Position numbers and translations under genes: made by a program
Shown here: piece after piece, positions 12,244-33,224 of the stretch
How the letters are laid out: every line of letters begins with the position of its first letter
Numbering within the stretch: the first letter of the stretch is position 1
NCBI GenBank assembly: GCA_049515535.1
Contig: JBEKTZ010000001.1
Coordinates: 80,599-144,598, forward strand
DNA: 64,000 bases
Origin: Candidatus Aminicenantales bacterium
GTDB lineage: Bacteria > Acidobacteriota > Aminicenantia > Aminicenantales > UBA4085
Direction of reading: 5' to 3'
Notes under the pieces: model-generated
Databases searched by the model: none
What the model was told of the DNA's origin: nothing
What the model saw: the letters and a program-made list of their open reading frames with translations, nothing else

Positions 12244-12265
12244 CATGCCCATCTCATACACCTCG

Positions 12266-14098: not shown

Positions 14099-14122
14099 GG
14101 CAATTATTCCTCCTTTGTCATC

Positions 14123-14326: not shown

Positions 14327-14370
14327 GATTCCTCCTTCAAGGAAAAAGCTGTGACAACCCTGCCGGGGAT

Positions 14371-16631: not shown

Positions 16632-16732
16632 TTTCTAAACTCCGAGACTACCACAGGCTATTACAAGCTATTATTGGGATGTGGCCCCGAATTAATGACC
16701 TAATTCGGGGATAACAAAATTGAGATTATGGA

Positions 16733-17899
16733 TTAGGCGAGGCCGGGGATTCGATCAATTATTTTTGATACATGTTCAACAATGGTATTATTTGAATCGA
16801 TTACTCTTCTTATTTGTCTTTTGCTTGAATTGAAGATTTTTGACACAAGAAACAGAGCTAATTCAGATGGTTCAGCGGTCCGAATAGTGTCTAATATTTC
16901 TAAAAACATAGTTTCATTTAGGATTTTTTTTATATCTTTTTCTTTCATGGGGCTCTGAGCATCGAGGCCGGCGCGCTTCCTCATTTCCTGCCTGAACTCT
17001 TGCTCGGGCATGCCATACCTTGGAAGCTGCTTGAACAAATCAAAATTATTTATTAACCATCCTCCACCTATGCTTTCCCACGAATCATAGCCTTTACTTA
17101 TTTCCCAAAGTTTCAATAGATCCTTTTTTACTTCAAAATATCGGTGCTTCCTAAGGAAGATTCTATATTTACGCCATTCTTTTCTCGCCTCTTCATTTGA
17201 ATATAGCTCTTTGACTATCGGACGACTTTTGACAAATATTCTCCTTAAATACTCGTACCTAAAAACAATTCGGATTTTTTCCTTTTTGGTATAGCTGGCG
17301 GGGCCCCTCGTGACAATGCCTGCTCTATTTTTAAGCTGATAGACCAATTCATCAATTTTGTTGGACATTGCAGATGATTCAAACCAATGCTGGAATAGCC
17401 TAAAAAATATCGGATTCTTTAGTATTGTAGGTCCTTCAAATAAATACACGAGGTTTTTAAGATTATTCTCGTTAGCTAGGATCGCCGTATCCAGATAAGA
17501 CGACTCAGCTTTTCTTTTAAGATCTCTAAAGAAGGCTAGGTCATCGGCGGATAATTTATTACTTGCAGCTCCCCCAAAATTCTTCTCTCTCTTCGGCTTT
17601 ATTTTTTCTTTTGACAAGACTTCTTCAATTAATCGGTCGACTTCATCATCCAAACATAGGTCAATCCATTTTTGATTAGATTCGATTTCAAGTTCCTGAA
17701 TAATCTGGCCCAGCATATCTCTGAGAAAGATTGGAGTCTTGTTTTTATAGAGGTCTGCCCAGGCTTTTCGTCTGGAAATAAATTCGAGCTTTCTGTGACT
17801 TGAATCAAGCTCCTCTTCATCAAGTCTGATCGAAATTATTTTTTCTCTTAAATCGCTGCAAATATTTAGCTCAGCCCAATATTTCTCTTTTTCAGACAT
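16733..17899 (-). CDS. hypothetical protein, AT-rich orphan (Lys/Glu-rich, 388 aa)
   Basis: Long clean ORF in a markedly AT-rich block (16.7-18.1 kb) within a high-GC context. Preceded by an AT-rich promoter-like region at 17900-18130. No recognisable catalytic motif. Confidence 0.55.
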   Translation of the reverse strand: MSEKEKYWAELNICSDLREKIISIRLDEEELDSSHRKLEFISRRKAWADLYKNKTPIFLRDMLGQIIQELEIESNQKWIDLCLDDEVDRLIEEVLSKEKIKPKREKNFGGAASNKLSADDLAFFRDLKRKAESSYLDTAILANENNLKNLVYLFEGPTILKNPIFFRLFQHWFESSAMSNKIDELVYQLKNRAGIVTRGPASYTKKEKIRIVFRYEYLRRIFVKSRPIVKELYSNEEARKEWRKYRIFLRKHRYFEVKKDLLKLWEISKGYDSWESIGGGWLINNFDLFKQLPRYGMPEQEFRQEMRKRAGLDAQSPMKEKDIKKILNETMFLEILDTIRTAEPSELALFLVSKIFNSSKRQIRRVIDSNNTIVEHVSKIIDRIPGLA

Positions 17900-18160
17900 C
17901 TTTATTACCTTTTTAAAAATTCTTTATATGAATTTTGATACTAAATATTTAAACAAGTCTTTAGGTCATTTACAAGCCAATGAAATAAATGAGAAAATAA
18001 ATTCTGATCTTCGTCATATTGAGGCGCTAATACGCTCAGCGATCATATCGACAGCGGGAAGCACTCCTAAGTAGCGAGTTGGCCAGGGGCCATTTCACTA
18101 ATTAGTTTTTATCGATCTTATCTCATATTTCTTGCCATCTTGAGCTTTTCGTTTAGCTTG

Positions 18161-18289
18161 TTAATCAGACCCACAGATTGCACACTTCCCCATGAAAATA
18201 TCCGTATCATCGTAATCCTCAAACGGCATCGGCAATCCGCAGGTGTGACAGAAAAGGACGATAATTTTCTGGCGTTTGATTCGCGCCAT
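18161..18289 (-). CDS. possible 42-aa zinc-ribbon micro-protein (MARIKRQKIIVLFCHTCGLPMPFEDYDDTDIFMGKCAICGSD)
   Basis: Not in the ORF track (below its length cutoff). Two CxxC pairs. ATG with a purine-rich upstream stretch. Lies directly downstream of the SNF2 gene. Competes with a plus-strand ORF at 18140..18424. Confidence 0.25.
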   Translation of the reverse strand: MARIKRQKIIVLFCHTCGLPMPFEDYDDTDIFMGKCAICGSD

Positions 18290-18466
18290 GAGAATAATTC
18301 CCGCTTTCCTTCGTCCTTCCTGATGAGGCCAGATTTTGCCTTCGCGGTGTCGTTTTCATCGGGAGGCTTGTCGATGAGCCAGGTTTCCCCGCCTCATTGC
18401 TGCACTCCAGTCTTTGAACAGTAGAGGGTTTATACTTTGAAGATAGAAACCCATGGTTCACCTCTC

Positions 18467-21400
18467 CTATTGCGCAGGCTTTAGCTTTCCTACCTCCCAG
18501 CGGTGGTCGGCGAAGGCGGCGTCGATGCTGCTGCCGGAAAGGCGGGAGCGTTGATCGTTGGGTGTGAGGGTACGGAGGAACTGTTCCAGTTCCCACGCGA
18601 GTTGTGGGGTCCAGCCGAACCGGCCGCCAAGCGATTCCTTGGCCCGGCGAATTCTTTCCGCGAGCGGGCCGGTGCGGGCTGCCTGGGCTTCGGAAAGTTG
18701 GGCAAGGTCCGCAGCAGCAGAGTCGATGCAGCGCAGTAAGCGTCCAACTTCGCGATTAAGTCTCAATGCTGCGGAGGCGCGTTGCGCGGCGAGGTTGGCC
18801 TGTTCTATCTTGGCGGCACGGCTCTCCAATTCGCGGACCTGGCGTTCAGCTTCCTGTTGGGCGTGCCGCGCGGCGGCTGCGATCTTCTCCGGGGCGGGTA
18901 GTGTACCGTCCCATTCCTCCACACGTGCCCGCAGGGCGGCAAGGTTCTGGAGTGGTTCCGCGGCGTTTTCGGAGACCCAGAAGGCGCATGAGCGGCGAAA
19001 GGCTCCGACTCGGGCGCTGCCAACAACGAGTGGCAAGGTCTCGCCGGGCCGCGTCAGGCGGTCGGCGATCTGCGCGACCTCTGGGCTAAGTGCTGTAAGG
19101 GGCCGCGCGGTGGGGGCTACGTCCAGCGCCGGATCGACGAAGGCAAAGGTGATCGGCTTGTTTTCGAGGCCCTTGACTATGACAGTTCCCTTCGCGGCAT
19201 GTCCGGAAATCTGGAGACCGTAATCTGGTTGAAGGATTTCCAGAGCGGAAACGATGTCGGCGCGAGTTACTGAGGGTGTTGGCTGATCGATCTGGACCGC
19301 TTCGGAGTCGAGGTAGGTTTCGGCGCTGATGAAGTTGCGCTCCGCCTCGAAAGCAATGCGCTCCAACTCGTCCACGGAGAACTGGCCAGGGTGATTCAGC
19401 ATGACCTGGGCGCGGGCGAGCACAGGCTGCATCGTACCAACGAAATGCATAAACAGGCCGCACCGGCGGCGAAGCGCACCGTAGACCTTCTCGTCGATGC
19501 TATCCTTGAGCAGGAAGTTGTAGACTCGGATTTCCCGCTCACTTTGGCCGATTCGGTCAATGCGGCCGATGCGCTGCTCGACCTTGCTCGGGTTCCAAGG
19601 CAGGTCGTAGTTGATGAGGGCGCTGGCGGTCTGGAGGTTCAACCCCTCGCTGGCGGCATCAGTGCAGATGAGGTAGCGTATAGTCCCCTGTTTGAGGGCG
19701 TCGGTAATCTCCCTCTTCGTGACAGGGATCCATTTACTTTCCCGGTAGAAGGCGCCGCCTCCGCCGCTGTAGCTTGCGACCTGCTCGGCGTAGTGATTCG
19801 CGAGGTTGTCTCGGAGATACTCCATAGTTTCTGCGTACTCGCTGAAGACGAGGATGGGGCGCCCTTCCGCGGACAAATCCCGGATGCGATCGAAGAAGCG
19901 GTCGCGCTTGGTATCCGTGGCGCCCAGGGCGCGGAGTTGGTCGAGCAGAATCGTGACTTCGGCGGCTTCCCTGCGAGCATCTTCCGGGTTGGTGGGCAAA
20001 CTGGCCGGGATGGCTCGGGTGTCGAGGCCCTCGGGGATGTCGGCATCGCTGAGGCCGGCGGGCACGTCAGTCTCTTCGATGTAGCCGGAACTGGCGCGCT
20101 GAGTCATCACGCGTTGCAGACCGGCAAGGCGGCGCTCCAGACTGCAACGGAGCGCATAGGGCGAGCTAGCCGCGCGGCGGCGGTAGATCGTCATGACAAA
20201 GCCCTTGCCGGGCTTTTCCCCTTCAAGTTCCTCAAAACGTTTCTCAATGTAGCGCGCAACGGCATTATAGACCCGGCGTTCCGGGCCGTTTGGCGGCTGG
20301 AAGTCGAAGGGGATGTCAACCACGACGCGTATGGGCGGAGCTGCGGGGAGAAGGCCGCGTTGGTGGTAGTCCCGGAGCGTCTTCCGGGTGTTACGGTGCA
20401 TCCGCCTGGCGAGTGGCGAGCCCTGACGAAGCCAGCGGATCACATCGTCCTTCCAGCCTGGTGGAACAAACCGTAGGCGGCGTTCGCCGTCCTGCGGCGA
20501 GGCGATCCGCGCGAAGCCTGCTGGCGGAGGCGGGAAACGTAAGTCGGATGTGACTAGAAAGGCAGCGCGGTGGGCGTCTTCCGGGGAGGGAGTGCCGGTC
20601 TTGAGCCCGTGTATGAGGCCATAGAAGCCGCGGACACCCTCGAAGTCGGAGAGCCATGCGCCGCCCTCGCCGAGGATAGACATGAGGTCCCAAGGTTCCC
20701 ACGGGGACGTTTGCATAGGCGTGGCACTGAGCAGTAGGAAGCCGCAGGCTTTGCGACGGACCTGCATCAGGCGGAGCAGATTAAGGAGAAGTGTGGATGA
20801 ATTGAATTCGCCTTCCTCCTGCTTGCCTCGTCGCGCGGCGTGGGCCTCGTCCATAAGCACCAAGTCCCAGGGTCGAGCGGCAAGCAAGATGTTGGCGTTG
20901 GACTCTGTCCTCGCCGTCTCGCGGCTCATGAGGAGGAAGTCTTGTTCGAGGGCTGCGGCCAGGCCTGGAAAGTGTTGGGTGCGGCCATCCGGCCAGACGA
21001 GCGTGTCGAGACCCTGGAGGCGGGGGACGACCAGACCGCCCTTTTCGCGGAGCTCATCCTGCCATTGGGCGGTGAGGCCAGCGGGGAGTAGCAACAGGGC
21101 ACGGGCGACGCCGCGGCCAGCCATGAGGCGGCGAAGGATCATAATGGCCTCGATGGTCTTGCCCATCCCGACTTCGTCGCAAAGCATGCGGCCGTCCGGC
21201 CACGCGGCGGACGCTTCCTCGATCACAACCCGCTGGTGCGGCCAGAGGTCAATCGGCGAGGTGGCTTCGCACGCGGACGCGCCACTTTCCAAATAAGGAG
21301 CCTCGGCAATGAAGCGCCAGAGCACGGCGGCCTTGCGTCGGGCAAGGGCGTCCGTGGGTTCCGTGACCGGGGGTTCCGGCGGCGCGAGTTTGACGAGCTT

Positions 21401-22111
21401 CAGCTTGAGGGCTTCGGGGAGCGTGACGGTGTGAACGTGCGGGTGGCTGTCTTTCCAGAGCGCATCGAACTCCTCCCGATACTCGCGGAAGCGTTCCTCG
21501 TCCTGCCATGAGGCGGAGACCTCCAGGCGCTCGTAGTTGGCGCGGAGACCCTGGGCGGACTCGTTGCCGCTGCCGTTGAAGACGATGGCCTTGCCGGAGG
21601 CGTCGTACACGAGACCGAACTTACCGTGAACAATGCCTTCGCCTTGCCGCATGACTCCCACGCGAACGGCCAGGAGGCCGGATTTGGTCATCCAGCCGAG
21701 CATGGCAAGGCGCTGCTTTTCCAGTAGATCGCGCGGCGTCTTGAAGCGTTTGGCGAGCGTCGCCTCCAGTGCGGACGTGTCGCCGGTCTCGATCAGGGCG
21801 CGGACATCGTCTTCGGCCAATTCCTCGTTAACCACGAGGCGGACCGCGGGACGCGGAGCCTTGGCGCCGAGAGCAATCAGGCGGCCGATCAGCCCGGCGA
21901 AGCCGCGGGCCGCGGCCGAAAGAACGCTACTTGAAAAATAGGCGCAGCAACGGTCATAGCGGATGGCCTCTGACAAGGCCGGGACGTAGAGTTTCTCGAC
22001 CAGTTCGTTATCCGGTCCCCGGATGAAGCGCCGCCAAGCGTGACGGGTCAAGTCGCCGGCAGCCAAGGATGACTTGGACGCCGAGACGATTTTGGACGGG
22101 GCAGTGCTCAT
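18467..22111 (-). CDS. PLD-family (HKD) nuclease domain fused to SNF2/DEAD-box superfamily-2 helicase
   Basis: N-terminal single HKD motif (HGKFGLVYD = HxK(x)4D). Helicase Walker A (DEVGMGKT). DEAH-like box (VLMDEAH). SAT motif (LLLSATPMQ). Helicase_C motifs (LICTDAASEGLNLQ, QRIGRIDRIGQ). The ATG overlaps the upstream methyltransferase stop (ATGA). Confidence 0.85.
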   Translation of the reverse strand: MSTAPSKIVSASKSSLAAGDLTRHAWRRFIRGPDNELVEKLYVPALSEAIRYDRCCAYFSSSVLSAAARGFAGLIGRLIALGAKAPRPAVRLVVNEELAEDDVRALIETGDTSALEATLAKRFKTPRDLLEKQRLAMLGWMTKSGLLAVRVGVMRQGEGIVHGKFGLVYDASGKAIVFNGSGNESAQGLRANYERLEVSASWQDEERFREYREEFDALWKDSHPHVHTVTLPEALKLKLVKLAPPEPPVTEPTDALARRKAAVLWRFIAEAPYLESGASACEATSPIDLWPHQRVVIEEASAAWPDGRMLCDEVGMGKTIEAIMILRRLMAGRGVARALLLLPAGLTAQWQDELREKGGLVVPRLQGLDTLVWPDGRTQHFPGLAAALEQDFLLMSRETARTESNANILLAARPWDLVLMDEAHAARRGKQEEGEFNSSTLLLNLLRLMQVRRKACGFLLLSATPMQTSPWEPWDLMSILGEGGAWLSDFEGVRGFYGLIHGLKTGTPSPEDAHRAAFLVTSDLRFPPPPAGFARIASPQDGERRLRFVPPGWKDDVIRWLRQGSPLARRMHRNTRKTLRDYHQRGLLPAAPPIRVVVDIPFDFQPPNGPERRVYNAVARYIEKRFEELEGEKPGKGFVMTIYRRRAASSPYALRCSLERRLAGLQRVMTQRASSGYIEETDVPAGLSDADIPEGLDTRAIPASLPTNPEDARREAAEVTILLDQLRALGATDTKRDRFFDRIRDLSAEGRPILVFSEYAETMEYLRDNLANHYAEQVASYSGGGGAFYRESKWIPVTKREITDALKQGTIRYLICTDAASEGLNLQTASALINYDLPWNPSKVEQRIGRIDRIGQSEREIRVYNFLLKDSIDEKVYGALRRRCGLFMHFVGTMQPVLARAQVMLNHPGQFSVDELERIAFEAERNFISAETYLDSEAVQIDQPTPSVTRADIVSALEILQPDYGLQISGHAAKGTVIVKGLENKPITFAFVDPALDVAPTARPLTALSPEVAQIADRLTRPGETLPLVVGSARVGAFRRSCAFWVSENAAEPLQNLAALRARVEEWDGTLPAPEKIAAAARHAQQEAERQVRELESRAAKIEQANLAAQRASAALRLNREVGRLLRCIDSAAADLAQLSEAQAARTGPLAERIRRAKESLGGRFGWTPQLAWELEQFLRTLTPNDQRSRLSGSSIDAAFADHRWEVGKLKPAQ

Positions 22112-25086
22112 TCGCTGGCCTCTTCATCTTCCGTTTCGTCGTCGGTCTCATTCTCCTTCTCTTCCTCGTACTGGAGATTGAGTTCGAGTTCGTACTTGGG
22201 TTCTTGCCATTCGGGTGGCTTAATTCCGAAGATTGGTTCGATCATGGCATGCCAGGCGCGGAACTCGGGATAGATTGCGGCGGCGCTGGTCTTGCCCTTA
22301 TCAAACCAGAGTGCGGGCGGAGCAGCTTTGAGCAAGGCTTCCATGAGGCGGGCGATAGGCGAGCCGCTCTTCCAGCCTTGTTGAGTGGCAAGTTGTCGGG
22401 CGGAGCCGAGACCAGGATTACCGCCACCAGCCTCGGCGTAGCGCAGGGCCAACGCGTGGCAGGCATCGAGCGCGGTCCGGAAGTGCGAGTCGTTGGGATG
22501 GACCTTGAGGACATCGCCTTTCTTGACCCGCTTTTTCTTGCCGGCGGGCATGGGACCGAAGAGCGTTTCCTCCATCTCCTCCTGCTCCAGTTTCTTCGCG
22601 CGGCGGCGGTCCCTGGCGGAGAGGATCTTGATTTTGTCACCGGACTTGGAAACAAGGCTGGCGTAAACCATGGTGTCAACGTCCATGCCGACGGCCTTGC
22701 CCAGCAGATGGGCTTCATTGAAGCGAAACTCGGCGGCTTGGAGAACGTCCCAGCAGAGCAGATAGAAACGGCCCTCGGCCTCGACCCCCTGGAGTCCACG
22801 CGCGGCGAGTTGCTGGATACGGAAGGCGGCCACCGCTTCGCTGGCCTCATCCAGCGCGCGGTCAACGCCGACGGCGTCGCCGGTATCGGTGCGGACCTCC
22901 GAATGGCAGCTGTAAACCTCCATCGCCGGACCGAAGGACCCAACGAGTTGGTCAACCGGGTTCAGGCCATCCTTCATTAGGCGTTCGGCGGTCTTCTGTG
23001 CGGCGAGGCGAATCTCGCGCCGCATCTCGTCGTCGAAATAGCCGACCTCAGCCTTGGGGTTCCGCTTGCGGGCAACAAGGATCACGGTGCTCTGGGCCGC
23101 GTTCTTCTTGGCCTGGTGGAGGGAGTGCTCGCTCTCGGTCTTGACCGGCCAGGTGGCGGTGATGGTGAAGCCGGCCTTGACCAGCGACGTGAAAAGGGCT
23201 TCCCACGCCTCCTGCTTCTTGTGAGTGAACATCACGGTCAGCGCGCCGTTGTCGCACAGGACGCGGCGGCATTCGGTGAACGTCTCGGCCATGATGCGTT
23301 GGTAGAAGTCGTTGGCCTTCCGGCGGGCGTCGGCGGCCTTCTCGCCGTCGTTCCGATGGCGAGGGATGTTGACGACCGCCTCTTCCGTGTGGTCGCAGAG
23401 GTAACTTGAGAACCATTCCGGCCGGCGATGCCCTTGGGTACGCTTGAGCCAGACGTAGAAGAAATCGGCGAGTTCGGAGTACTGGACGTTGTCGGCGTAG
23501 GGAGGGTCAACGACAACGGCGGAGATAGTGCGGTCTGCAATCTCGGGTAAAGAGGTTGCGGAACCGAAGTTGATTGCGACGCAACGGGCGGCATCGTGGC
23601 GTGGGAAGCGAGAGATCTCCTCGTAGGCTTCCATCACGTTGTCAGTAGCCCAGGCCATACCGTTGCCTGAGTGGCAGGCTGCCATTTCCGCGAAGGTCGG
23701 CTTGAACTGGAAGTCATGGCGGTCCATACGCCCTTTGATGACGGATCTTGTGTTCTCGTAGCGGGTTGCCATGCAGTCGTGGTTGATAAACTTGTCGAGG
23801 ATGAACGCAAGCAGATGGATGACGGCCTCGCCTGTCTCTCGACCTTCGGTCTTGATGACTATTGGCATCATGTCCTTGAGTTCGTCAACGAAGACCGCTG
23901 CGCTGAGAAGTTGGCGGGGTGTGAAGATATCTGCCCATCGTGGCATACCGTAGATGCGTGGGCGCTCGTCCGTTGTGATCTCTGGATAGAGTTCCGTTGG
24001 AATTATATTCTCATTTTCCCAACGCTTTCGATGCTTGGAGAGTTCGTTTTCTGCACTTTTCAGCGTTTGTAGTTCGTTCTCGGTGGGGCGGTCGAATGTC
24101 AGACCCTTCGCTTTGACGGCAACGGCGTAAAGGGCACATTTCATCTTGCCGGCCTGGGCCTGGGCCTTGATCCAGGTGTCGGCGATTTGTTGGCCGGAGA
24201 AGAGGCTGATGCCTTTGCCGTCTCCGTACGTAGGCGCAGGCGGGGTTTTGCCGCGCGCTCGCTGGTCGCGGTTGTCCACGATGCGGACGCTCCACGTGCC
24301 GGCCTTCTTGTCCACGATGGGTTCGGCCCAGATGCGGACCTTGGAGTCCTTGGGTTTGAGGACGTGCCAGTCCGGGATGAGTGGTGTATGGGGGTGGCCT
24401 TCCGTGTCGGGGCATGGCACGGTGCGAGCGAAGATGTAGGCGTGGACCAGGCCGTCTTTGCGTCTAGGGAAAAAGGGCGCGAGATGCTTCTCTGCGCGCG
24501 CGAGCCATTCTTTGGCCCATTGCCGGGTGCGTTCGGCGAGTTTGTCGCCGAAGCGGAATGGATAGTCCACGGTGGCTTCGAGGACGGTGCATGCAACGGG
24601 GTTGTACTCGTTGGCTAGGGTGCGGAAGCCGAGCCGGGCGGATTCAAGGGGGATCGAGCCGCCGCCTGCCATGGGGTCAATTACGGCGATGTCTTTGCCG
24701 AATAATCGCGCGGCGGCTGCGTGGGCTTTGGCGAGATCGTCCTCGCGCATAGGCCCCTTGAAAGCGCGATCGCAGCCGAAGCCGCCTTCGACCCGTTTGC
24801 CGGTGTCCATGAGTTGCCGAATACAAACAAGTTCCTTGCCGGGTTTGCCGAATCCGAGTAGGCGCTCGAAGACATCGTGCGGGAAGTCTGCGGGTAGGAG
24901 TGAACCAAGTACGGCAGCGCGGGAGGCGCAGAGCGGCCGGCGCGCCCACCAGACGTGGAGGTAGGTCGTTGGCGCGAGTGCGCTGGCGCTGCCGCGTTCG
25001 CGCATGCACTCGACGCCGATGGCGGCGGCGGGAAGCCAGTCTTCGATGAGGAGGCGGGGTTTCTTCATTACAGGGTACCAAGGCAT
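22108..25086 (-). CDS. DUF1156-type N6-adenine/N4-cytosine DNA methyltransferase (DPPY motif)
   Basis: N-terminal region characteristic of DUF1156-type methylases (MPWYPVMKKPRLLIEDWLPAAAIGVE...). Catalytic motif IV VVVDPPYADNV. 992 aa. Stop overlaps the SNF2 start. Confidence 0.8.
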   Translation of the reverse strand: MPWYPVMKKPRLLIEDWLPAAAIGVECMRERGSASALAPTTYLHVWWARRPLCASRAAVLGSLLPADFPHDVFERLLGFGKPGKELVCIRQLMDTGKRVEGGFGCDRAFKGPMREDDLAKAHAAAARLFGKDIAVIDPMAGGGSIPLESARLGFRTLANEYNPVACTVLEATVDYPFRFGDKLAERTRQWAKEWLARAEKHLAPFFPRRKDGLVHAYIFARTVPCPDTEGHPHTPLIPDWHVLKPKDSKVRIWAEPIVDKKAGTWSVRIVDNRDQRARGKTPPAPTYGDGKGISLFSGQQIADTWIKAQAQAGKMKCALYAVAVKAKGLTFDRPTENELQTLKSAENELSKHRKRWENENIIPTELYPEITTDERPRIYGMPRWADIFTPRQLLSAAVFVDELKDMMPIVIKTEGRETGEAVIHLLAFILDKFINHDCMATRYENTRSVIKGRMDRHDFQFKPTFAEMAACHSGNGMAWATDNVMEAYEEISRFPRHDAARCVAINFGSATSLPEIADRTISAVVVDPPYADNVQYSELADFFYVWLKRTQGHRRPEWFSSYLCDHTEEAVVNIPRHRNDGEKAADARRKANDFYQRIMAETFTECRRVLCDNGALTVMFTHKKQEAWEALFTSLVKAGFTITATWPVKTESEHSLHQAKKNAAQSTVILVARKRNPKAEVGYFDDEMRREIRLAAQKTAERLMKDGLNPVDQLVGSFGPAMEVYSCHSEVRTDTGDAVGVDRALDEASEAVAAFRIQQLAARGLQGVEAEGRFYLLCWDVLQAAEFRFNEAHLLGKAVGMDVDTMVYASLVSKSGDKIKILSARDRRRAKKLEQEEMEETLFGPMPAGKKKRVKKGDVLKVHPNDSHFRTALDACHALALRYAEAGGGNPGLGSARQLATQQGWKSGSPIARLMEALLKAAPPALWFDKGKTSAAAIYPEFRAWHAMIEPIFGIKPPEWQEPKYELELNLQYEEEKENETDDETEDEEASE

Positions 25087-25132
25087 TGCTGATTCAGCAT
25101 AGAATTCGCTGAATCAGCATAACTGCAACCGT

Positions 25133-26770
25133 TCATCCATGCTCCTTGAGAGTCCATTTGGCCCTGCGAGTAGCACCGACCTGTTTCACAACCCCTTCGT
25201 TTTCAAGTTGTTTCAGGAGATACCATACCTGGTTACGGTTCATGCCGGTGATTTCGCGGAACTGGGAATTGGTGAGTGGGCCCTGCCTCAGGGAGGCCAG
25301 AACCCGTCCGCGTGCGGCCTCGGATGCCATGCGGCGGTCAAGGTGGTAGGCAAGGTCCGTTTCGAGGATGTGATAGGCACGCAATGAAAGCCGGAAATAA
25401 CGCCCCCGGCCGGGGCCGCCAGCGGCTTCGAGCAGACCGCGACGGTTGGCCAAGGCGCCGAGGTGTTCGCGGGCATCTTCCAGGGGCCGCTGGCAGAACT
25501 CCGCCGCTTGACGGGCCGTGATCTCCCGGTGGCGGGTGAGGTAGTGAATGACCAACAGTTCGTCCACGCCGAGATCGTCGTACTCGCGCATCAGATCGAG
25601 GAACGGCTTGCGAGCATCCTGGCCTTTGACGGCGACTGAGACCGTCTGGCCGGTGGTCCAGTAGTACGGAGGCTCCTTGCCTTCGGCCAGCAAGTCCCAG
25701 TACACGCGCGGCACACCAAGGTTGGCGGCATTGGCAAGACGGATGCGGGCGAGCGCGGCAAACAGGGCCGGGTTTCTTGGCACAGAGGTGTGGTGCAGGA
25801 TGTTTTCCGGCGTAATGTCGCCGGGGAAACCGCCGGGGTTGGATATTTCGATGCGATCCGGATACAGTTTCACAACCAGAGAGCCGGGCGCGGAGAAATC
25901 GCGATGCGCCAAAGCGTTGACTAGTAGTTCGCGCATGGCCAGGACCGGATAGCGCGGGAACTCCGGGTGGACCAGATCGCCTTTGATGGTGAGGACCGGG
26001 TTGTTGGCGTTGATCAACTCGCGCAACCGGCGGAGCGCTACTGCGAGGCAGTCAAAGCCGGAGTCGGCCTGATCGTAGTCCGTATCCGAGAGCATGCGGA
26101 AGAACTGCCACTGGGAATGGGTTACGCGCCGGCGGATTTCCTCTGTTTGGCCGACGAGCAATAGACCAGCCATGATCAATTGGCCCTCATTGGTCAGCAC
26201 GCCAAGAGCCCGAAGCAGATCAGGGTCGGAAAGGCGGAGCAGGTCCGCCGTTGCGCCCACTTCACGCATGAGGGCCCGCAGGTCTTCCATGCCGGCAGGT
26301 CGAATCAGCGGTTCCCAAGGTCCGACCACTGGCGCCGCGGTGAACTCGATGCCAGCCTCGGCGCGGATCGCGTCGATTTCCGCGAGGGTCAGGCCGCGCA
26401 GATCCTCGCCCACGCGGATAAGGTAGTCGCCGCGGCGGGTGTGGAAGAGCTGTCCACGCGGACGGCCTGGGATGGTGACGACAACGACATTGCCCTCGGG
26501 CGTGGCAAGGTTCTCGACTTGGACGTGAATCTGGGCGGAATCGTACACGCTGCGGCGAATCTGCTGCATCTCATCCGGGGGCAACGGATCAACTGGTTGG
26601 ATGCGGCGCGGAGGGCGATTGGTGACGCCCATGACCAGGTGTCCGCCGCCGGAGTTACCGATACCAACGGCATAGCGCGCGATCTCGGTTCGCGGTTCAA
26701 GGGACGGCTTGAACTCCACGTTTTCCGTTTCGTTGCCAACCATGAGCGCCTGGAGTTCGGCAAACGTCAT
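25133..26770 (-). CDS. AlbA_2 (Schlafen-like) + HATPase_c_4 + C-terminal wHTH protein (RecG-C-terminal-like putative DNA-binding regulator)
   Basis: N-terminal ENVEFKPSL...GIGNSGGGHLVMGV is typical of the AlbA_2 divergent AAA domain. The central region is ATPase-like. The C-terminal end is a winged-helix (NQVWYLLKQLENEGVV). Start set at ATG 26770, which overlaps the upstream stop (ATGA). Confidence 0.65.
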   Translation of the reverse strand: MTFAELQALMVGNETENVEFKPSLEPRTEIARYAVGIGNSGGGHLVMGVTNRPPRRIQPVDPLPPDEMQQIRRSVYDSAQIHVQVENLATPEGNVVVVTIPGRPRGQLFHTRRGDYLIRVGEDLRGLTLAEIDAIRAEAGIEFTAAPVVGPWEPLIRPAGMEDLRALMREVGATADLLRLSDPDLLRALGVLTNEGQLIMAGLLLVGQTEEIRRRVTHSQWQFFRMLSDTDYDQADSGFDCLAVALRRLRELINANNPVLTIKGDLVHPEFPRYPVLAMRELLVNALAHRDFSAPGSLVVKLYPDRIEISNPGGFPGDITPENILHHTSVPRNPALFAALARIRLANAANLGVPRVYWDLLAEGKEPPYYWTTGQTVSVAVKGQDARKPFLDLMREYDDLGVDELLVIHYLTRHREITARQAAEFCQRPLEDAREHLGALANRRGLLEAAGGPGRGRYFRLSLRAYHILETDLAYHLDRRMASEAARGRVLASLRQGPLTNSQFREITGMNRNQVWYLLKQLENEGVVKQVGATRRAKWTLKEHG

Positions 26771-27189
26771 TTGACGGCCTCCACAAGGATGCGTAAAGCG
26801 CGGATAGCGCGGACGCGGCGGGTTCCGGACATGAGGCCGAGCCACCAGGCAGCCTCAGTGGCGTCAGCGCGCTTGAGGGAATCGGCAGCGTTGTGCATGG
26901 CGGTAGCGTTACGGAGTCCGCTTGTTACAAGCGCATAGCAGGCGACGCGCGCGCCGTAGTCCTGGTCCAGCGGGTAGAACGGGCCGGGCGTGAACTTGGT
27001 GACGTTGGCGCCACGGACAGAAGCGCGAAGCAGTGACGCGCCAGCGGAGAATGCCAGCGGGCCGATGGCGGCGACGCGGGCGAGGCGCTCCTCGCCGGTA
27101 GTCTTGAGGGAGCGGCGGCAGATGATGGCCGCGGCGCCGGCCTTGCGCTTGACGATGCGGAGAGCGAATGAAGCTTCGCGGACGGTCAT
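26767..27189 (-). CDS. small conserved hypothetical protein (positional equivalent of the DUF3780-like component of DUF499/DUF1156 cassettes)
   Basis: 140-aa ORF translationally coupled on both sides (ATGA overlaps at 27186-27189 and 26767-26770). No motif. The family assignment is an inference from synteny. Confidence 0.45.
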   Translation of the reverse strand: MTVREASFALRIVKRKAGAAAIICRRSLKTTGEERLARVAAIGPLAFSAGASLLRASVRGANVTKFTPGPFYPLDQDYGARVACYALVTSGLRNATAMHNAADSLKRADATEAAWWLGLMSGTRRVRAIRALRILVEAVK

Positions 27190-30140
27190 TTCTTACCCCC
27201 TCCCTTGGCGGCCGGTTTGCCGAAAGTCGCGGAGGGGGCTACGTCGTCGCCGGCCTTTTCGGCGGCGGCTTCGAGTTGGATCTTCATGTTCGGGCGGCCG
27301 GGGTCCTTGAACTTCAAGCGGAGTTGCGCGCCATAGGTCATGCCCTCCTGCATGGCGTTGAAGAGGGTGCGAGAAGACTCCAAGGCTTTGATGGGGCTGT
27401 TTTGTTTGACGCCGCGGACTTCGAGGCTGGCCGTGCCGCCGGACTTGAGTTCGCCGCTGACGGTGACTTCGAGTGTAAGTTCGTCGGCCCCGAGCGGTTG
27501 AGCGATGCCGGCGAGGGTTTCCGCAACAATGGGAGTGCCAGCGTTGAGTTCGAGGATGCGGAGGGGGCGCGTTTCAGCGTGCGCGAGGATATTGGTCCAG
27601 TTGGAGGCGATGACGGTGTCGGGCTCAGCGGGAGGCGGGAAAGGCTGCGCGCCTGGTTCCTTGACTTTGCCCGATTCCTTGGCCGCGTCCACTTTGAGCC
27701 AGTCCTTGGCGGCGGTGCTGTCGGCGCGGGTGATGAGTTCGTCTTCGCGGAGTCCGAGACTGGGTGTCTCGCCTTGGATGCGGCGGCGTTGACCGGGCGC
27801 GCCGGTCACGGCTCCGGTCTTGTCGTAGGCGGCGCCGTCGGCGGCGCGAACGACGGCTTTGCCCTGCTCGACGGACCGGAGCACGGTCAGCTTGACGACG
27901 GAGGCGTCCGGTACGAGGCGGAGGCCGGGGGCGGCAAGGAAGCGTTCGTGAACGTCGCTCTGGCGGTAAACGTCGGGCTGGTCGGGGATGGGTGTGGTGC
28001 TGCTGAGGACGGTCTTGAGGAAGCGGTCGGGATCGAGAGCCTGGCCGGCCTTGTAGAGCATCTCCTTATCCTCAAGGAAGGAGCGTAGGCAGCGCTGGCC
28101 CTGGGGCTTGCTGAGGATGTCTTCGTCAGAGACCTGGTACTTCTCCTCGAAGCGGCCAGCGACTCCGTCAGCACGGACGACGGTGTCGAAGGCACGGCAG
28201 GTCTGAAGTTTGAACTCGCGGGCGAGAGTGGGTTCGAGCCGAGTAAGTTGCTCGCGGACGAGGGCGCCGCTGTCGCCGTGGCGGGCATCCTTTTTGATCT
28301 GCTCGGCGGCGATCAAGCGCTTGGTGCGTTCGAGGGCGTTCTGGAACGCGTCCGGGTTTGGGGCGACGGCCACGATGGCGTTGCGGAAGCGGCGGGGCGT
28401 GGGGGCCGCGGGGTCAGTGTCGTCCTCGTACTGGCAGACGTTGACCGCTATGTCCACGGTGGCGCACAGGGCGAGTTGCAGCGAGGGGTGCTTCTGCACG
28501 TCGCGGGCCTTTTCGGGCCAACTGGCTAGGGAAAAGAGCGGGCCGGCGAAGTAGCTCTGGGCCTCGGAGAAGACGCGGTCGAGGGCTTCGTCCTGGTCCA
28601 CGGTGGCGGCGCGCTGTTCGATCTGCTTGATGACATTGGGCTCAAAGCGGAACTGCCAGCCTTTGTGACCGGCGAGCGGATATGTGTGCCAGCAAGCGCC
28701 GACGAGACGGTCAAGGGCTTGGGATGGCTCCTCGCCGGATTCCGAAGTGCGAAGTATCGCAAGGGTAAGGTCGGCGGGATCCATACCGCTATTCTCGTTG
28801 CGCGGGAGGCTTTCAAGAAGCAGTGCAGAAGCCACGCGGTAGTGGATGCCGTCGGGTTTGCGATCGTCGAGATCGAGGGCATGACCTTCGATGTCGGCGC
28901 TGACGGCGGCTTCGAATTGGTCCTTGCGTAGGCGTTGGAGAAGGTCTCCACGGATGTCTGGGCTTCCCCAGTTGATTTCGCCGGCGGTGACGAGTTCAAC
29001 CTCGCGCTGGCTGTTCCAGATCTCGCGGATGATGCGGGCGAATAGGCGAAGCACGCCGCGACTGCGTTGGAACTCGGGAAGTGGGCCGAGGCGTTCCTTG
29101 GCGGTGTCAATCAGGCGGGGATGGAAGGGGTAGCACTCCTGGATTCGGCGGGCGTAGTCGGCGCTGAGTACGGCGGTCGGGAGCAGGTCGGGGTGGGCCT
29201 CCCGGACGCGTTCGTAGAGTTGATGATAGATGGCAGATGCCTGGGCTGCGGCGGCGGGATCGATCTTGTCGAAGAGGCGGCGCGCGATAACGCGGGCGGC
29301 TTGTTTGCCGACGGGATCGAAGTCGGTCATCTTACGACCGAGGATGTCTTCCATCTTCATGGCCGAAGGTCCAAACGCCTTCGCCATCAGAGCAGCTTCA
29401 GATGCATAGGCTGCTTGCTGGCCAGGGTCGGTGATAACTAGGACTGCTTGTTTCCGTTTGGCAATGGCCGAAATCAGTTTCCCAAGGGAACTCATCAGGT
29501 TCCCTTGGCCGGTAGCGGAGAGGCAGGCCATGTAGATGACGAGTTCGTCGAGGAGAATGAGCAGAGGGCCTTCACCGAGCATTTTCGAGAGGAGTTTTTC
29601 ATCCGGCGAGGCTTCATGATGATCTGCTGGACTGAGTGCCTTAAGGGCGGACGGGCCGCCAAGTTGGAAGGCCAGTTCGCCCTGCAAGCTGTGCGTCTTG
29701 GTTGCATTATGCGTGGAGAAGATGGGAAGGCCGGCTTTTGCAGCATCTACCGCAACCACGGTCACGGAGTTCGGCCGGCCAGCCGCTGGAAGCAGTTCCG
29801 TTCCGAGCGTAAGTTTGTTGATGTTCTGCGCGAGGTGCCAGAGCGCCATAAGGGTGTGGGTCTTGCCGCCGCCGAAGCCGGTGCTGAGGCGGATCAACTG
29901 GCCGGTTTCCTTATTATCCGCGAGAGCCTTAAAGACGGCAGTGCAGACGGCCTTGAGGTCGGGCGTTGGTTCCGTATTGCGGAAAAAGGTCTCTGCATGG
30001 CCGTAGACCTTGGGTGCGCTTCCGTCAATGAGTTGGCCGAAGTCGGCGGCGAAGATGGCGTCGTCGAGTTCGCCTTCGAGGACTTCCTTGCGTGGCTTGC
30101 AAGCATTCAAAACGCTAAATCCTTTACTTTTCTTGCTCAT
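27186..30140 (-). CDS. DUF499-type AAA+ ATPase (BrxC/PglY-like)
   Basis: Walker A (STGFGGGKTHTLMAL). Walker B-like (LLILLDELVIY). About 980 aa. GGAG RBS 5 nt upstream of the ATG at 30138-30140. First gene of the operon. Confidence 0.8.
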   Translation of the reverse strand: MSKKSKGFSVLNACKPRKEVLEGELDDAIFAADFGQLIDGSAPKVYGHAETFFRNTEPTPDLKAVCTAVFKALADNKETGQLIRLSTGFGGGKTHTLMALWHLAQNINKLTLGTELLPAAGRPNSVTVVAVDAAKAGLPIFSTHNATKTHSLQGELAFQLGGPSALKALSPADHHEASPDEKLLSKMLGEGPLLILLDELVIYMACLSATGQGNLMSSLGKLISAIAKRKQAVLVITDPGQQAAYASEAALMAKAFGPSAMKMEDILGRKMTDFDPVGKQAARVIARRLFDKIDPAAAAQASAIYHQLYERVREAHPDLLPTAVLSADYARRIQECYPFHPRLIDTAKERLGPLPEFQRSRGVLRLFARIIREIWNSQREVELVTAGEINWGSPDIRGDLLQRLRKDQFEAAVSADIEGHALDLDDRKPDGIHYRVASALLLESLPRNENSGMDPADLTLAILRTSESGEEPSQALDRLVGACWHTYPLAGHKGWQFRFEPNVIKQIEQRAATVDQDEALDRVFSEAQSYFAGPLFSLASWPEKARDVQKHPSLQLALCATVDIAVNVCQYEDDTDPAAPTPRRFRNAIVAVAPNPDAFQNALERTKRLIAAEQIKKDARHGDSGALVREQLTRLEPTLAREFKLQTCRAFDTVVRADGVAGRFEEKYQVSDEDILSKPQGQRCLRSFLEDKEMLYKAGQALDPDRFLKTVLSSTTPIPDQPDVYRQSDVHERFLAAPGLRLVPDASVVKLTVLRSVEQGKAVVRAADGAAYDKTGAVTGAPGQRRRIQGETPSLGLREDELITRADSTAAKDWLKVDAAKESGKVKEPGAQPFPPPAEPDTVIASNWTNILAHAETRPLRILELNAGTPIVAETLAGIAQPLGADELTLEVTVSGELKSGGTASLEVRGVKQNSPIKALESSRTLFNAMQEGMTYGAQLRLKFKDPGRPNMKIQLEAAAEKAGDDVAPSATFGKPAAKGGGKK

Positions 30141-30557
30141 ACCTACTCCATTCGCAATTACATAATGGCTTTATTATCGCTTTTTTTAATTGGGTTACTT
30201 GAAGATAAGACATTCCCCTTTCGCATTGACTATAGCTTTCGGCATAGGTCGGAGTCAAGAAGTCAAGGATTCGCAATCATGCCCAGCTAGGTAAGGGGTC
30301 CGACTTCCTCTTGAAATCGTTTATAAGGGGTTTGTCCGTAGACGTCCGGATCATAAGCGAAATGAACCACTAGATTTCTCCCCAAAAATCCATGTGAAAA
30401 AATTGAGGACAAGATCGCTATTAATGGCTCAGCTTAATTAGTCCAGCTAAAAATGGGCTGACCCGGCTCACCATTGCAACAATAGCTGAAGAAATCTTTA
30501 TGGAGATGCCTCTGCATGGCTCCCAGGCGGGCGCATCGGCTCGGACCGTACCTTAGG

Positions 30558-30578
30558 GCTATGCTCATAGAGCATAGC
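30558..30578. promoter_or_regulatory. perfect 21-bp palindrome GCTATGCTC-ATA-GAGCATAGC followed by a (TA)n tract and a half-site repeat (TGAGCATAGCA at 30613-30623)
   Basis: Read directly from the sequence. Lies in an AT-rich 530-bp gap between the Mrr-like gene stop and the DUF499 operon start. Candidate operator or promoter region. Confidence 0.3.
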
Positions 30579-30673
30579 ATAGCTATATATATATTAGTAA
30601 TATATATAAATATGAGCATAGCAAAGCAGGATCCACGCCTTCCTGAGCTGCGGCTTGGTGCTGGGCGAGGAAT

Positions 30674-31564
30674 TTATTTTGTTTTATTGATTTTTGGAAT
30701 TTTTTTTGAGAAATATTTGGACAGAGAAGGCGAGAAATCTTCCACTATTGACAGCCACGGCCTGTCCGGCAATAGCGGGCCTACCATTCGATTCAGCTTT
30801 CCCCTGTCAAACAGCTTGATTATCTTTCCTCGCTCTTTCGCTCGGCCGACTGCTTCATAGGCGCGGTAAGTGAAATGGTCGGCTGTGGAGACCAAGATTC
30901 CGTTCAACGAATCCTTTAAATCCAACGCCCCAAGGAGATTGCGTATAGTTGCTACACCCTCAGAGGAATTGGGGCGTCCGCGCCTCTTGACCTGTATGAG
31001 CCACTGTTTCTCCCTTGAATCAATAAAAACTACATCAACGCCGCCATCGCTGGGCTTGCCGACATGAAACACTTCGCAATCTCCGTGATTTGCCTTAAAG
31101 ACAGAAGCCACCAGTTTTTCAAGTCTGGCAGGACTTATCGTGTGCCAAATATTTTTGTCTCTCCTAACAGCCTGAGCAAGCTCATCATCCGGCCCTTCGG
31201 GCAATTTCCCTTCAAAGTCTCTTAGCTTGGAAATATAAGCATCCGAAATTAATTCCGATGCGGTGTTGTCTTTGCCCTCATGCCAGTACCACTGCCAATA
31301 TGCGCAATAATCACAAGACCATAGAGTGGAATCAACTAAGAAAACGAATCGTTTTGATTCAGGGTCATTTTGTTCTTTATAAAAATCAGCCGAACGCAGG
31401 GAAGTGCCGCAGAATGGGCAATTTTTTATTTCCGGGAACTGATCGTAAACCCACTCATAAATTAATTCGGCTTGCTCACCCTCAATACATTCTCCATTAA
31501 TTTCACATGTGAAGTCTGCCGCGACAATATGGTCATGTGGTATCTTGGAAGCTTTGGACATCAC
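30674..31564 (-). CDS. Mrr-like (Mrr_cat) restriction endonuclease-domain protein with N-terminal Cys-rich (zinc-ribbon-like) domain
   Basis: C-terminal PD-(D/E)xK signature DGGVDVVFID...QWLIQVKRR matches the Mrr catalytic pattern (GIDG...IQ.KR). N-terminal CPFCG...CDYC Cys cluster. The exact first codon is ambiguous. Confidence 0.7.
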   Translation of the reverse strand: MMSKASKIPHDHIVAADFTCEINGECIEGEQAELIYEWVYDQFPEIKNCPFCGTSLRSADFYKEQNDPESKRFVFLVDSTLWSCDYCAYWQWYWHEGKDNTASELISDAYISKLRDFEGKLPEGPDDELAQAVRRDKNIWHTISPARLEKLVASVFKANHGDCEVFHVGKPSDGGVDVVFIDSREKQWLIQVKRRGRPNSSEGVATIRNLLGALDLKDSLNGILVSTADHFTYRAYEAVGRAKERGKIIKLFDRGKLNRMVGPLLPDRPWLSIVEDFSPSLSKYFSKKIPKINKTK

Positions 31565-31794
31565 ATTAAATCCGTTTCTTAACGGACCTAATAATATTAC
31601 AGCCTATTTCTTTCTGCTTCAATCCGGCAAGAAAAAACGGAATCCGTAGCTTAAAAAATCAGCACGCGAGTCCGAACCCGCCTGACGACGAACATCCTCC
31701 GAATTTGCCGCCCAACACGTTGGGGTTCAGCGGCGGGCGCAGCCCATCCCGTAGAACCCCATGTTGGGCCACGTTGCGGTCCTGATTGATGTTC

Positions 31795-33192: not shown

Positions 33193-33224
33193 ACAGTCTG
33201 TATAATTCTTGAAATACAGACTGT
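33193..33224. promoter_or_regulatory. hyphenated palindrome ACAGTCTGTAT-N10-ATACAGACTGT abutting the annotated start codon of the DAC-fold gene
   Basis: 11-bp perfect inverted arms read directly from the sequence. An AT-rich promoter-like region lies upstream (33225-33500). Confidence 0.35.

Follow-up and report, generated by a model that had tools for sequence, protein, structure and literature searches.

The operon at positions 18467-30140 of the window (the whole stretch of DNA that was analysed, 64,000 nucleotides from a Candidatus Aminicenantales MAG) is read, with a probability of about 0.75, as an intact but divergent relative of BR type 2 (Gao_RL, MANTIS), with a fifth, accessory defence gene inserted in it. 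Its architecture is not new: it represents a variant within a known kind of methylation-based anti-phage system, with a core of four genes; what remains new for study is the DUF7680 lineage itself, named here after the Pfam family of its small protein.

Operon organization

Five intact open reading frames, indicated as g1 to g5, follow each other on the minus strand (Table 1). ATGA stop/start overlaps are found at three junctions: 27186-27189, 26767-26770 and 22108-22111. At the g3/g4 junction there is no overlap; a spacer of 46-64 nt is present instead. The five genes, the three overlaps and the GGAG ribosome-binding site had been listed in the earlier note and are all read directly in the sequence; its proposal of a single operon is also correct, as indicated by the overlaps at three junctions. 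For g4, a second in-frame ATG, at 25068, gives a product of 986 aa, which is the one reported by gene callers and likely corresponds to the true start.

A candidate promoter is located about 90 nt upstream of g1: it is a pattern match only, the scan of the region being not enriched in comparison with shuffled sequences. No intrinsic terminator was detected 3' of g5. The part of the window upstream of g1 yielded neither an MtsR-like nor an HTH gene, and a 61-aa open reading frame (30434-30619) gave no matches.

Table 1. Features of the operon and of the surrounding island, in window coordinates.
Feature	Position	Strand	Basis
Integrative island, 26.3 kb	12171-38557	.	bounded by a 73-nt direct repeat
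Tyrosine integrase	12266-13714		within the island
g5, N-terminal single-HKD PLD nuclease + Swi2/Snf2 SF2 ATPase (MtsD-like), 1214 aa	18467-22111	-	Pfam
g4, DUF1156 N6-adenine DNA methyltransferase (MtsC/PglXI-like), 992 aa	22108-25086	-	Pfam DUF1156 3e-15
Two copies of TATGCTGAWTCAGC, each with palindrome GCTGAWTCAGC	25088-25121	-	g3-g4 spacer, 20 nt apart
g3, Schlafen (AlbA_2) + HATPase_c_4 + C-terminal wHTH, 545 aa from ATG 26770	25133-26770	-	Pfam
g2, small basic DUF7680 protein, 140 aa, pI 11.2	26767-27189	-	Pfam DUF7680 3e-7
g1, DUF499 AAA+ ATPase (MtsA/BrxC-like), 984 aa	27186-30140	-	Pfam DUF499 2e-19
GGAG ribosome-binding site	30146-30149	-	5 nt ahead of g1 ATG, direct reading
Candidate sigma-70-type promoter (TTGACT, 18 nt, TATAGT)	30229-30258	-	consensus scan, 10/12 matches

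ATPase, methylase and nuclease-helicase

In profile searches, DUF499, DUF1156, AlbA_2, HATPase_c_4, SNF2 and Helicase_C, all anticipated from the sequence, were matched, with PLDc_2 just under its gathering score. The domain assignments previously made are therefore retained for four of the five proteins (Pfam); the one made for the small protein, which belongs to DUF7680, is not.

Both nucleotide-binding motifs of g1 are intact (Walker A, GFGGGKTH, aa 88-95; Walker B, LILLDE, aa 194-199). Its top PADLOC model is HmaC (8e-66), with DUF499 at 2e-29, and the name reported by NCBI is 'DUF499 domain-containing protein'. In g4, motif I (MAGGG) is located ahead of motif IV (DPPY, aa 527-530), the order typical of group alpha; PADLOC reports HmaB as the top model (1e-81), along with DUF1156_MTase (5e-46) and PglXI (2e-16). 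A related locus (L001) seemed to carry a 5'-truncated methylase when compared with L002: the difference is produced by the gene caller, the DNA being identical.

For g5, Pfam reports SNF2-rel (2e-11), Helicase_C (8e-18) and PLDc_2 (1e-5, the score falling under the threshold mentioned above). One PLD motif is found (H162-x-K164...G180SGNES), together with GMGKT at 315 and DEAH at 421. The HxK...GSxNES residues align with those of two PLD-helicases, which bears out the N-terminal single-HKD PLD domain originally described; the PADLOC PLD_Helicase model is matched at 6e-70. The protein is 28% identical to the canonical MtsD over 845 residues (208 bits). By sequence, g1 and g4 find no match in PDB, and g5 finds nothing except Snf2/RapA cores.

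The same three proteins match NCBIfam models for anti-phage families, but well below the curated cut-offs: g1 matches DUF499_antiphage at 8e-42, with 143 bits against a cut-off of 1200; g4 matches DUF1156_antiphage at 5e-61, with 207 bits against 1000; g5 matches phospholipD_antiphage at 3e-99, with 334 bits against 1100. For all three Gao_RL equivalog models (NF042962, NF042963, NF042964) the scores reach only 12-30% of the cut-offs. As a consequence, annotation based on cut-offs leaves DUF7680-type loci unnamed: labels currently found in such loci are 'DUF499', 'hypothetical', 'ATP-binding' and 'helicase-related'.

The small protein

The protein encoded by g2 occupies, in the gene order, the position of MtsB/DUF3780, and had been described as DUF3780-like. 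This assignment was wrong: DUF7680 is the only Pfam family matched, even at E <= 10, and no NCBIfam or PADLOC model is matched. Relatives of g2 are numerous (715 were found), and for most of them a DUF7680 domain is already reported in precomputed annotation.

Sequence comparison gives no statistical support to homology between g2 and MtsB/DUF3780: alignment of the DUF7680 and DUF3780 profiles by hhalign is not significant (probability 0.3%, E 0.21). In that same non-significant alignment, elements b4, a3, a4 and a5 are in register, and LDxxxG..C and E..WWL are lined up. The AF2 model of g2 (pLDDT 89.8) features the element order b-b-b-a-a-b-a-a-a-a; the order is identical in the DUF3780 model, but the pLDDT of the latter is 54, and the comparison concerns element order only. 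The PDB copies searched returned neither MtsB nor any other MANTIS chain.

Distribution of related loci

The order g1-g2-[slot]-g4-g5 is kept in 65 species-level genome loci, as well as in metagenome contigs, from at least 10 phyla. Strong Pfam matches to DUF7680, when tested, showed the same four-gene context also on rhizobial and cyanobacterial plasmids. The plasmid loci giving the best matches to g4 and g5, from Roseomonas, were set aside: they are disrupted by IS elements and have no ATPase. Conserved co-occurrence of all five genes had been anticipated; it is found for the four-gene core (about 60 genomes), but not for the fifth gene.

The content of the slot, which separates the small gene from the methylase gene, was evaluated in the 57 loci that show g2 as well as g4. 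In 27 of these it is empty. Homologues of g3 occupy it in about seven related loci, counting 6 among the 57 together with L043 and L056, which do not show g4; in others it contains NYN, GmrSD, SMODS, SIR2, a C5-methylase with Vsr, or further genes. In the closest relatives of the core, whose g1 is 83-89% identical, the slot holds GmrSD, other cargo or nothing. On the g1 tree, loci bearing g3 are scattered, and basal branches feature empty slots.

The Schlafen gene

The Schlafen (SLFN_AlbA_2, 3e-11) and HATPase_c_4 (4e-15) domains of g3 both score over the gathering score, while the wHTH matches HTH_20, HTH_5 and HTH_24 under it (2e-4 to 2e-3). Domains and mid-operon position are those originally described, as borne out by Pfam and by the coordinates. 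The HATPase_c_4 domain is histidine-kinase-like, and the protein matches PDB 3lmm_A at 2e-19. An N-terminal motif read in the sequence, E14-x-E16-x2-E19-F-K21, is a candidate for the acidic catalytic residues of the Schlafen RNase.

Judged by comparison of the related loci, g3 is cargo, carried in a variable slot within the operon and external to the four-gene core: most of them lack it, the slot being empty in nearly half and occupied by other genes elsewhere. The five-gene unit proposed in the earlier note was accordingly abandoned. It is quite unlikely that the operon is a true five-gene system, with the Schlafen-HATPase-wHTH protein as an obligate core subunit, even if some of its features would fit: g3 is translationally coupled to g2 by an ATGA overlap, this type of junction is kept in the divergent loci L012, L043, L056 and L061, the identity of g3 roughly follows that of the core, and cognate-looking repeats are found behind each g3 gene. 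The slot contents of the closest core relatives, the frequency of empty slots and the scattered distribution on the g1 tree all argue against it, and so does the four-gene MANTIS, which functions without any g3-like protein (bioRxiv 10.64898/2026.09.23.753747). The cargo slot represents a compact case of a second defence layered inside a first one.

Paired repeats

Locus-specific pairs of direct repeats, 19-20 nt apart, are located 3' of all of the intact g3 homologues examined (5 out of 5), with sequences that differ from locus to locus; the background for such pairs is 1.2% of 240-nt windows. They look like operators, and may be regarded as candidates for this role on the basis of their sequence. 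Paired repeats 3' of g3-type genes are absent from the descriptions of Schlafen HisKinase-HTH genes in PMC13056530 and PMC12839542. They provide a testable lead to the binding targets of the most common, uncharacterised bacterial Schlafen classes.

Genomic context

Two tRNA-Glu(CTC) genes, at 12193-12267 and 38483-38557, have their 3' part within the direct repeat bounding the island. GC content is 62.5% in the operon and 46-48% in the rest of the island; that of the chromosome is about 60%. Defence-type neighbours within the island include Mrr_cat and DACNV.

Methylase-plus-nuclease pairs, such as those of restriction-modification systems, are able to stabilise mobile elements, and the operon resides on a mobile island integrated at a tRNA gene. 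It is nonetheless very unlikely that it mainly serves as an addiction or epigenetic module of the island rather than in phage defence: both the island neighbours and the slot cargo (Mrr_cat, DACNV, NYN, GmrSD, SMODS, SIR2) are of the defence type, and the nearest characterised family, MANTIS, restricts phages and plasmids (bioRxiv 10.64898/2026.09.23.753747). One role does not preclude the other.

PglZ, BrxA and BrxF were not matched in any of the open reading frames scanned between 8.4 and 43 kb (Pfam, NCBIfam, PADLOC), and iSTAND was not matched anywhere in the island. The definition of the operon as BREX-related and PglZ-less, originally given for the island, thus holds within it and just outside the operon. 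Decay of a BREX type 3 or BR type 3 locus, with loss of PglZ and its partners, would account for the homology of ATPase, methylase and helicase to BrxC, PglXI and BrxHII (weak PADLOC matches; PMC12839542), and a weak BrxD-like ATPase open reading frame is found elsewhere in the island (35088-36350). Such an origin is extremely improbable: none of the proteins presumed lost has a match in the island, the PglZ-less four-gene layout is kept in dozens of genomes, and g5 carries a nuclease of its own, absent from the helicases of BR type 3 and BREX type 3 (PMC12839542).

Proposed mode of action

The mode of action proposed for the operon is modelled on that of MANTIS. In Pseudomonas aeruginosa MANTIS, ATP-dependent hemimethylation of asymmetric 6-bp sites needs A, B and C, while restriction needs A to D and favours inverted sites; nuclease activity of MtsD was not reconstituted in MANTIS itself (bioRxiv 10.64898/2026.09.23.753747). 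By analogy, g1, an ORC/Cdc6-type AAA+ ATPase, would load g4 onto DNA at short asymmetric sites, and g2 would stimulate methylation, in the role of MtsB. ATP hydrolysis by g1 would then allow turnover, so that host sites would be hemimethylated at N6-adenine. Incoming unmodified DNA, recognised by g1, g2 and g4, would recruit or activate g5; this would dimerise to form one complete PLD active site, and would use its SF2 motor for communication between sites and for cutting.

As for g3, it is most likely a second-layer effector of the RNase type, or a regulator. In either case, coupling of its translation to that of g2 would tie its expression to that of the system; it may bind the paired repeats just 3' of its own gene.

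A broader reading may be tentatively considered, although it is more doubtful than the assignment given at the start. DUF7680-type operons could form a separate, unnamed BREX-related lineage, with ATPase and methylase nearer to Type 1, the PLD-helicase and gene order of Type 2, and a small subunit which is either an MtsB diverged beyond recognition or an independent replacement. Such a lineage would have evolved a docking slot, where effectors are swapped in and become translationally coupled; the Schlafen cargo, with its own pair of operators, would control the methylase and the nuclease downstream. If so, it would link an RNase-type second line of defence to a restriction-modification first line.

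Comparison with known systems

The earlier note considered the architecture as uncharacterised. This does not stand: BR types 1-3 are catalogued (NAR 2026, PMC12839542); the mechanism of the four-gene MANTIS (MtsA-MtsB-MtsC-MtsD) has been published, with a biochemical dissection, in a September 2026 preprint (bioRxiv 10.64898/2026.09.23.753747), whose introduction recalls an earlier analysis of Gao_RL for restriction of a subset of DNA phages; and Schlafen-HisKinase-wHTH genes associated with BREX and BR loci have already been reported, in at least 1017 taxa (PMC12839542). Supplements of the NAR 2026 paper, searched by accessions, genera and sequence motifs for the class of DUF7680-type loci, contained nothing decisive.

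BREX type 3 shares with the operon homologous ATPase (BrxC), methylase (PglXI) and Swi2/Snf2 helicase (BrxHII): the resemblance originally noticed is the same relationship drawn in PMC12839542. Both BREX type 3 and BR type 3 feature PglZ, with BrxA/BrxF or iSTAND, which are missing here, and their helicases have no nuclease of their own (PMC12839542).

Hma, or BR type 1 (HmaA-HmaB-HmaC; PMC11232893; PMC12839542), is, like the operon, a PglZ-less, restriction-modification-like system with DUF499 and DUF1156 proteins. Top PADLOC matches of g1 and g4 are to its components, HmaC and HmaB, and their bit scores are higher against a Type-1 locus, L078 (167 and 178, respectively), than against the canonical Gao_RL locus, L076 (105 and 131). 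Membership in BR type 1 is all the same quite unlikely, in view of the helicase and of the gene order. By definition, Type 1 features three genes only and a TUDOR...REase helicase (PMC12839542), with a TUDOR N-terminus, a C-terminal PD-(D/E)XK nickase and no PLD; g5, in contrast, has an N-terminal HKD nuclease, shows no PD-(D/E)XK or NOV_C domain in its C-terminal 335 aa, and, at 1e-5, gives no BLASTP match to the L078 helicase. The operon has a small gene next after its ATPase, as MANTIS does, while BR type 1 has no small protein, and the order in L078 is helicase-MTase-ATPase. Many Type-1 ATPases also carry an N-terminal HEPN, which g1 does not.

Among Schlafen proteins, g3 has the architecture of the HisKinase-HTH class, where AlbA_2/Schlafen is joined to a histidine-kinase-like ATPase and an HTH; this is the second most common class of pSlfn (19.2%; PMC13056530). 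Like the accessory Schlafen-HisKinase-wHTH genes previously reported (PMC12839542), g3 is located within a BR core locus. The characterised RorSlfn5 belongs to another class: it is a stand-alone tRNase, triggered by a phage protein (PMC13056530).

SauUSI, a Type IV restriction enzyme and structural relative of MtsD, combines a PLD nuclease with an SF2 motor, as g5 does, and dimerises, the two subunits sharing one PLD site; it targets modified DNA and acts autonomously (bioRxiv 10.64898/2026.09.23.753747).

MANTIS / Gao_RL / BR type 2 remains the closest known architecture. A DUF499 AAA+ ATPase, a small protein, a DUF1156 group-alpha DPPY methylase and a PLD-SF2 protein are common to both, PglZ is absent from both, and the catalytic motifs are present here; L076 shares the order ATPase-small-MTase-PLD helicase, with identities of 23-28%. 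Differences concern g5, about 300 aa longer than its MANTIS counterpart; the cargo slot, located where, in L076, the small gene abuts the methylase; the MtsR repressor of MANTIS, no gene for a similar repressor being seen here; and the small protein. In MANTIS the latter is a DUF3780 protein of 195 aa, whose C-terminal extension contains a dimer interface (bioRxiv 10.64898/2026.09.23.753747); g2 is shorter and basic (Table 1), belongs to DUF7680 and lacks such an extension. The DUF7680 lineage appears as a widespread sister of MANTIS/BR type 2, with a highly conserved small protein of the same predicted topology. Features common to the two small proteins likely mark the methylation activator, so that the lineage offers a natural comparison, which bears on the role of MtsB in a family whose mechanism has become available only recently.

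Organization of the operon

The positions of the main features are reported in the table. Positions 18467-30140 contain five long ORFs, all on the minus strand, indicated as g1 to g5. ATGA overlaps are read directly in the sequence at the g1/g2 (27186-27189), g2/g3 (26767-26770) and g4/g5 (22108-22111) junctions, as is a GGAG motif (30146-30149), 5 nt ahead of the g1 start; all had been pointed out in the earlier note, and are confirmed. No overlap is present at the g3/g4 junction, where a spacer of 46–64 nt is found; the gene call on an identical contig places the g4 start at 25068. Some 90 nt ahead of g1 there is a candidate promoter-like element, TTGACT-18-TATAGT.

Features of the operon, of related loci and of the island (window positions, unless another locus is named)
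Feature	Position	Strand	Remarks
g1, DUF499 ATPase	27186-30140	minus	984 aa
g2, small protein	26767-27189	minus	140 aa
g3, Schlafen-HATPase-wHTH	25133-26770	minus	545 aa
g4, DUF1156 methylase	22108-25086	minus	992 aa; 986 aa if the start is the ATG at 25068
g5, PLD-SNF2 helicase	18467-22111	minus	1214 aa
Repeat pair, window	25088-25121		g3-g4 spacer
Repeat pair, L012	~8376-8410
Repeat pair, L061	~12053-12085
Repeat pair, L026	~12308-12340
Repeat pair, L056	~2022-2055
Island	12171-38557		26.3 kb
Tyrosine integrase, N-terminal HTH_17	12266-13714		left side
PC4-like ssDNA-binding protein	13802-14098
Primase-helicase-like gene	14501-16345		left side; DnaG zinc ribbon/Toprim/AAA_25
388-aa ORF	16733-17899		40% G+C
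Inverted repeat	30558-30622		12 bp, perfect
Mrr_cat nuclease-domain protein	30674-31564		right side
DACNV sensor-domain protein	31795-33192		right side
IS3 element	33899-34965		right side, among defence-type genes
420-aa ATPase	35088-36350		right side; weak BrxD/BrxC N-terminal match, very AT-rich DNA
RadC	37514-38020		right side

Pfam assigns g1 to DUF499, g2 to DUF7680, g3 to SLFN_AlbA_2 and HATPase_c_4 (wHTH matches being weak), g4 to DUF1156, with a weak N6_N4_Mtase match, and g5 to SNF2-rel and Helicase_C, with PLDc_2 slightly under threshold. Catalytic motifs are intact in g1 (Walker A GFGGGKTH, Walker B LILLDE), g4 (MAGGG preceding DPPY) and g5 (single HxK...GSGNES, GMGKT, DEAH). ORFs, Pfam assignments and motifs thus bear out the earlier description of five genes and their domains, except for the small protein: proposed to be DUF3780-like, it matches DUF7680 as its sole family, even at E<=10. 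The interpretation attached to that description is supported in part. NCBI product names for the operon proteins are limited to 'DUF499 domain-containing', 'hypothetical', 'ATP-binding' and 'helicase-related'.

At 62.5% G+C, the operon is close to the surrounding chromosome (about 60%) and above the remainder of the island (12268-18466 and 30141-38482), which is at 46–48%: this mosaic composition suggests different histories for operon and island backbone.

The small protein

Relatives of g2 (715 at E<=1e-3, 60–94% identity) are found in Planctomycetota, Verrucomicrobiota, Acidobacteriota, Chloroflexota, Thermodesulfobacteriota and other phyla. The family is small, as it forms just 107 clusters at 50% identity among 1.84 billion proteins; no mention of DUF7680 was found in the literature searched. 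Compared with DUF3780, the family of MtsB in the MANTIS system, g2 is shorter, much more basic (pI 11.2) and devoid of the C-terminal tail. The predicted order of structural elements is identical in g2 and in the DUF3780 model, a poor one (pLDDT 54). In a non-significant hhalign alignment of the two families, b4, a3, a4 and a5 are in register, and LDxxxG..C and E..WWL, each invariant within both families, coincide. g2 is probably a remote homologue of MtsB, or at least its positional and topological equivalent.

DUF7680 is usually conserved at least as well as the large subunits (loci L010-L074), with at least 60% identity across many phyla; in locus L004, identity is 63% for g2 versus 53% for g1 and 56% for g5. 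DUF3780 retains at least 73% identity between Proteobacteria and Firmicutes. The constraint acting on both small subunits seems unusually strong.

The g2-g4 slot and its cargo

The order g1-g2-[slot]-g4-g5, where the slot is the gap between g2 and g4, is essentially invariant in the comparison set (65 species-level genome loci and several metagenome contigs). Of 57 loci, 27 have a gap of at most 144 nt, with overlapping genes in 19 of the 27; in the remaining 30 it spans 0.7–9.8 kb. ORFs found there include NYN (9 members), AlbA_2 + HATPase_c_4 (4, in the scanned set), SMODS, GmrSD, SIR2, C5-methylase with Vsr, DUF4411 with M78 peptidase, AAA ATPases and others; in a cyanobacterial DUF7680 locus (L006), toxin-antitoxin and defence genes fill 4.6 kb in this same slot. 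In the nearest cores, whose g1 is 83–89% identical to that of the window, the slot contains GmrSD, a different 3-kb cargo, or nothing. Schlafen-bearing loci are dispersed in the g1 neighbour-joining tree, where basal branches have empty slots. g3 is therefore cargo, and the five-gene unit previously proposed is not maintained. At least 1017 taxa are reported to have Schlafen-HisKinase-wHTH genes closely linked to BREX/BR core loci (NAR, PMC12839542); the architecture accounts for 19.2% of bacterial Schlafens (Nature Microbiology, PMC13056530).

In the g3-g4 spacer, TATGCTGAWTCAGC occurs twice at a distance of 20 nt, and each copy includes an 11-bp palindrome. An exact direct repeat of 8–12 nt, with 19–20 nt spacing, is present at or just past the g3 stop in all five intact g3-bearing loci examined; such repeats occur in 1.2% of 240-nt windows from related loci. 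Its sequence is different in each locus, and palindromic in three. Lying upstream of the methylase gene, these repeats may be the cognate operators of the g3 C-terminal wHTH.

The island

The island holding the operon is bounded by a 73-nt direct repeat, corresponding to the 3' part of two tRNA-Glu(CTC) genes, one per end; its layout resembles P4-like or satellite-like mobile elements. Further defence-type genes (Mrr_cat, DACNV, weak BrxD-like ATPase, RadC) lie at 30674-38020. Immediately past the operon lies the 388-aa ORF, for which Pfam, NCBIfam and PADLOC give no match; in L007, an independent contig, the operon is followed by the same gene. Between the region upstream of the operon and the Mrr_cat gene, the two arms of a perfect inverted repeat, GCTATGCTCATA ... 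TATGAGCATAGC, enclose AT-rich (TA)n sequence. Among the ORFs scanned from 8.4 to 43 kb, none matches PglZ, BrxA, BrxF or iSTAND, and the absence of PglZ from the island, noticed earlier, holds.

Relation to known systems

The architecture, formerly taken as uncharacterised, is not new to the literature. Among BREX-related (BR) systems, Type 1 (Hma) comprises ATPase, methylase and a helicase with TUDOR and C-terminal REase; Type 2 has the same core, with an N-terminal HKD nuclease on the helicase, plus a stand-alone DUF3780 gene; Type 3 features a nuclease-less helicase, PglZ and iSTAND (PMC12839542). Gao_RL (BR type 2) was renamed MANTIS by Shaw et al., who described its mechanism: MtsA (AAA+) loads the methylase MtsC on DNA, MtsB stimulates methylation, and asymmetric 6-bp sites are hemimethylated; restriction requires all four proteins and both ATPases, with a preference for inverted unmodified sites, and MtsD is a SauUSI-like dimer with one PLD site (bioRxiv 10.64898/2026.09.23.753747).

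By analogy with MANTIS, from which we infer the whole scheme, g1 would load g4 on DNA and g2 would activate methylation, leaving host sites hemimethylated; g1, g2 and g4 would recognise unmodified sites, licensing a g5 dimer to translocate and cut. g3 would be co-expressed through translational coupling to g2 and add a second layer, probably as RNase effector and/or regulator. The chief value of the locus lies in the comparison it offers on the MtsB question and in its lead on Schlafen-wHTH operators.

MANTIS and the window operon share content and gene order, but their sequences are distant, and small gene and methylase adjoin each other in the canonical MANTIS locus. Scores against the NCBIfam Gao_RL equivalogs are 143, 207 and 334 bits, versus cut-offs of 1200, 1000 and 1100. 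g1, g4 and g5 are respectively 23.5%, 23% and 28% identical to their counterparts in the canonical Type-2 locus (L076, A. baumannii pSSMA17_1), where nothing significantly matches g2. g1 and g4 score somewhat higher against a Type-1 locus (L078) than against L076, while g5 matches only PLD-helicases in this comparison, with no hit at 1e-5 to the L078 helicase. The best PADLOC assignments (g1 HmaC, g4 HmaB, g5 PLD_Helicase) mirror this split.

A cultured clinical isolate of Roseomonas mucosa carries a related locus on a plasmid (L077, NZ_CP025194.1, 7315-16931), with an MBL-fold hydrolase gene inserted between methylase and PLD-helicase; as an IS6 element takes the expected ATPase position, it is a degraded or remodelled variant.

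The closest annotated relatives are plasmid loci of Sinorhizobium, Aminobacter, cyanobacteria and haloarchaea; the small proteins of the examined Sinorhizobium and Leptolyngbya loci match DUF7680 strongly (1e-44 and 1e-48). There is a broad DUF7680-type lineage of ATPase/small protein/methylase/PLD-helicase operons, and the window falls in a divergent branch of it: its operon belongs to a known, mechanistically studied family as a divergent DUF7680-type variant, and carries an accessory gene of known type.
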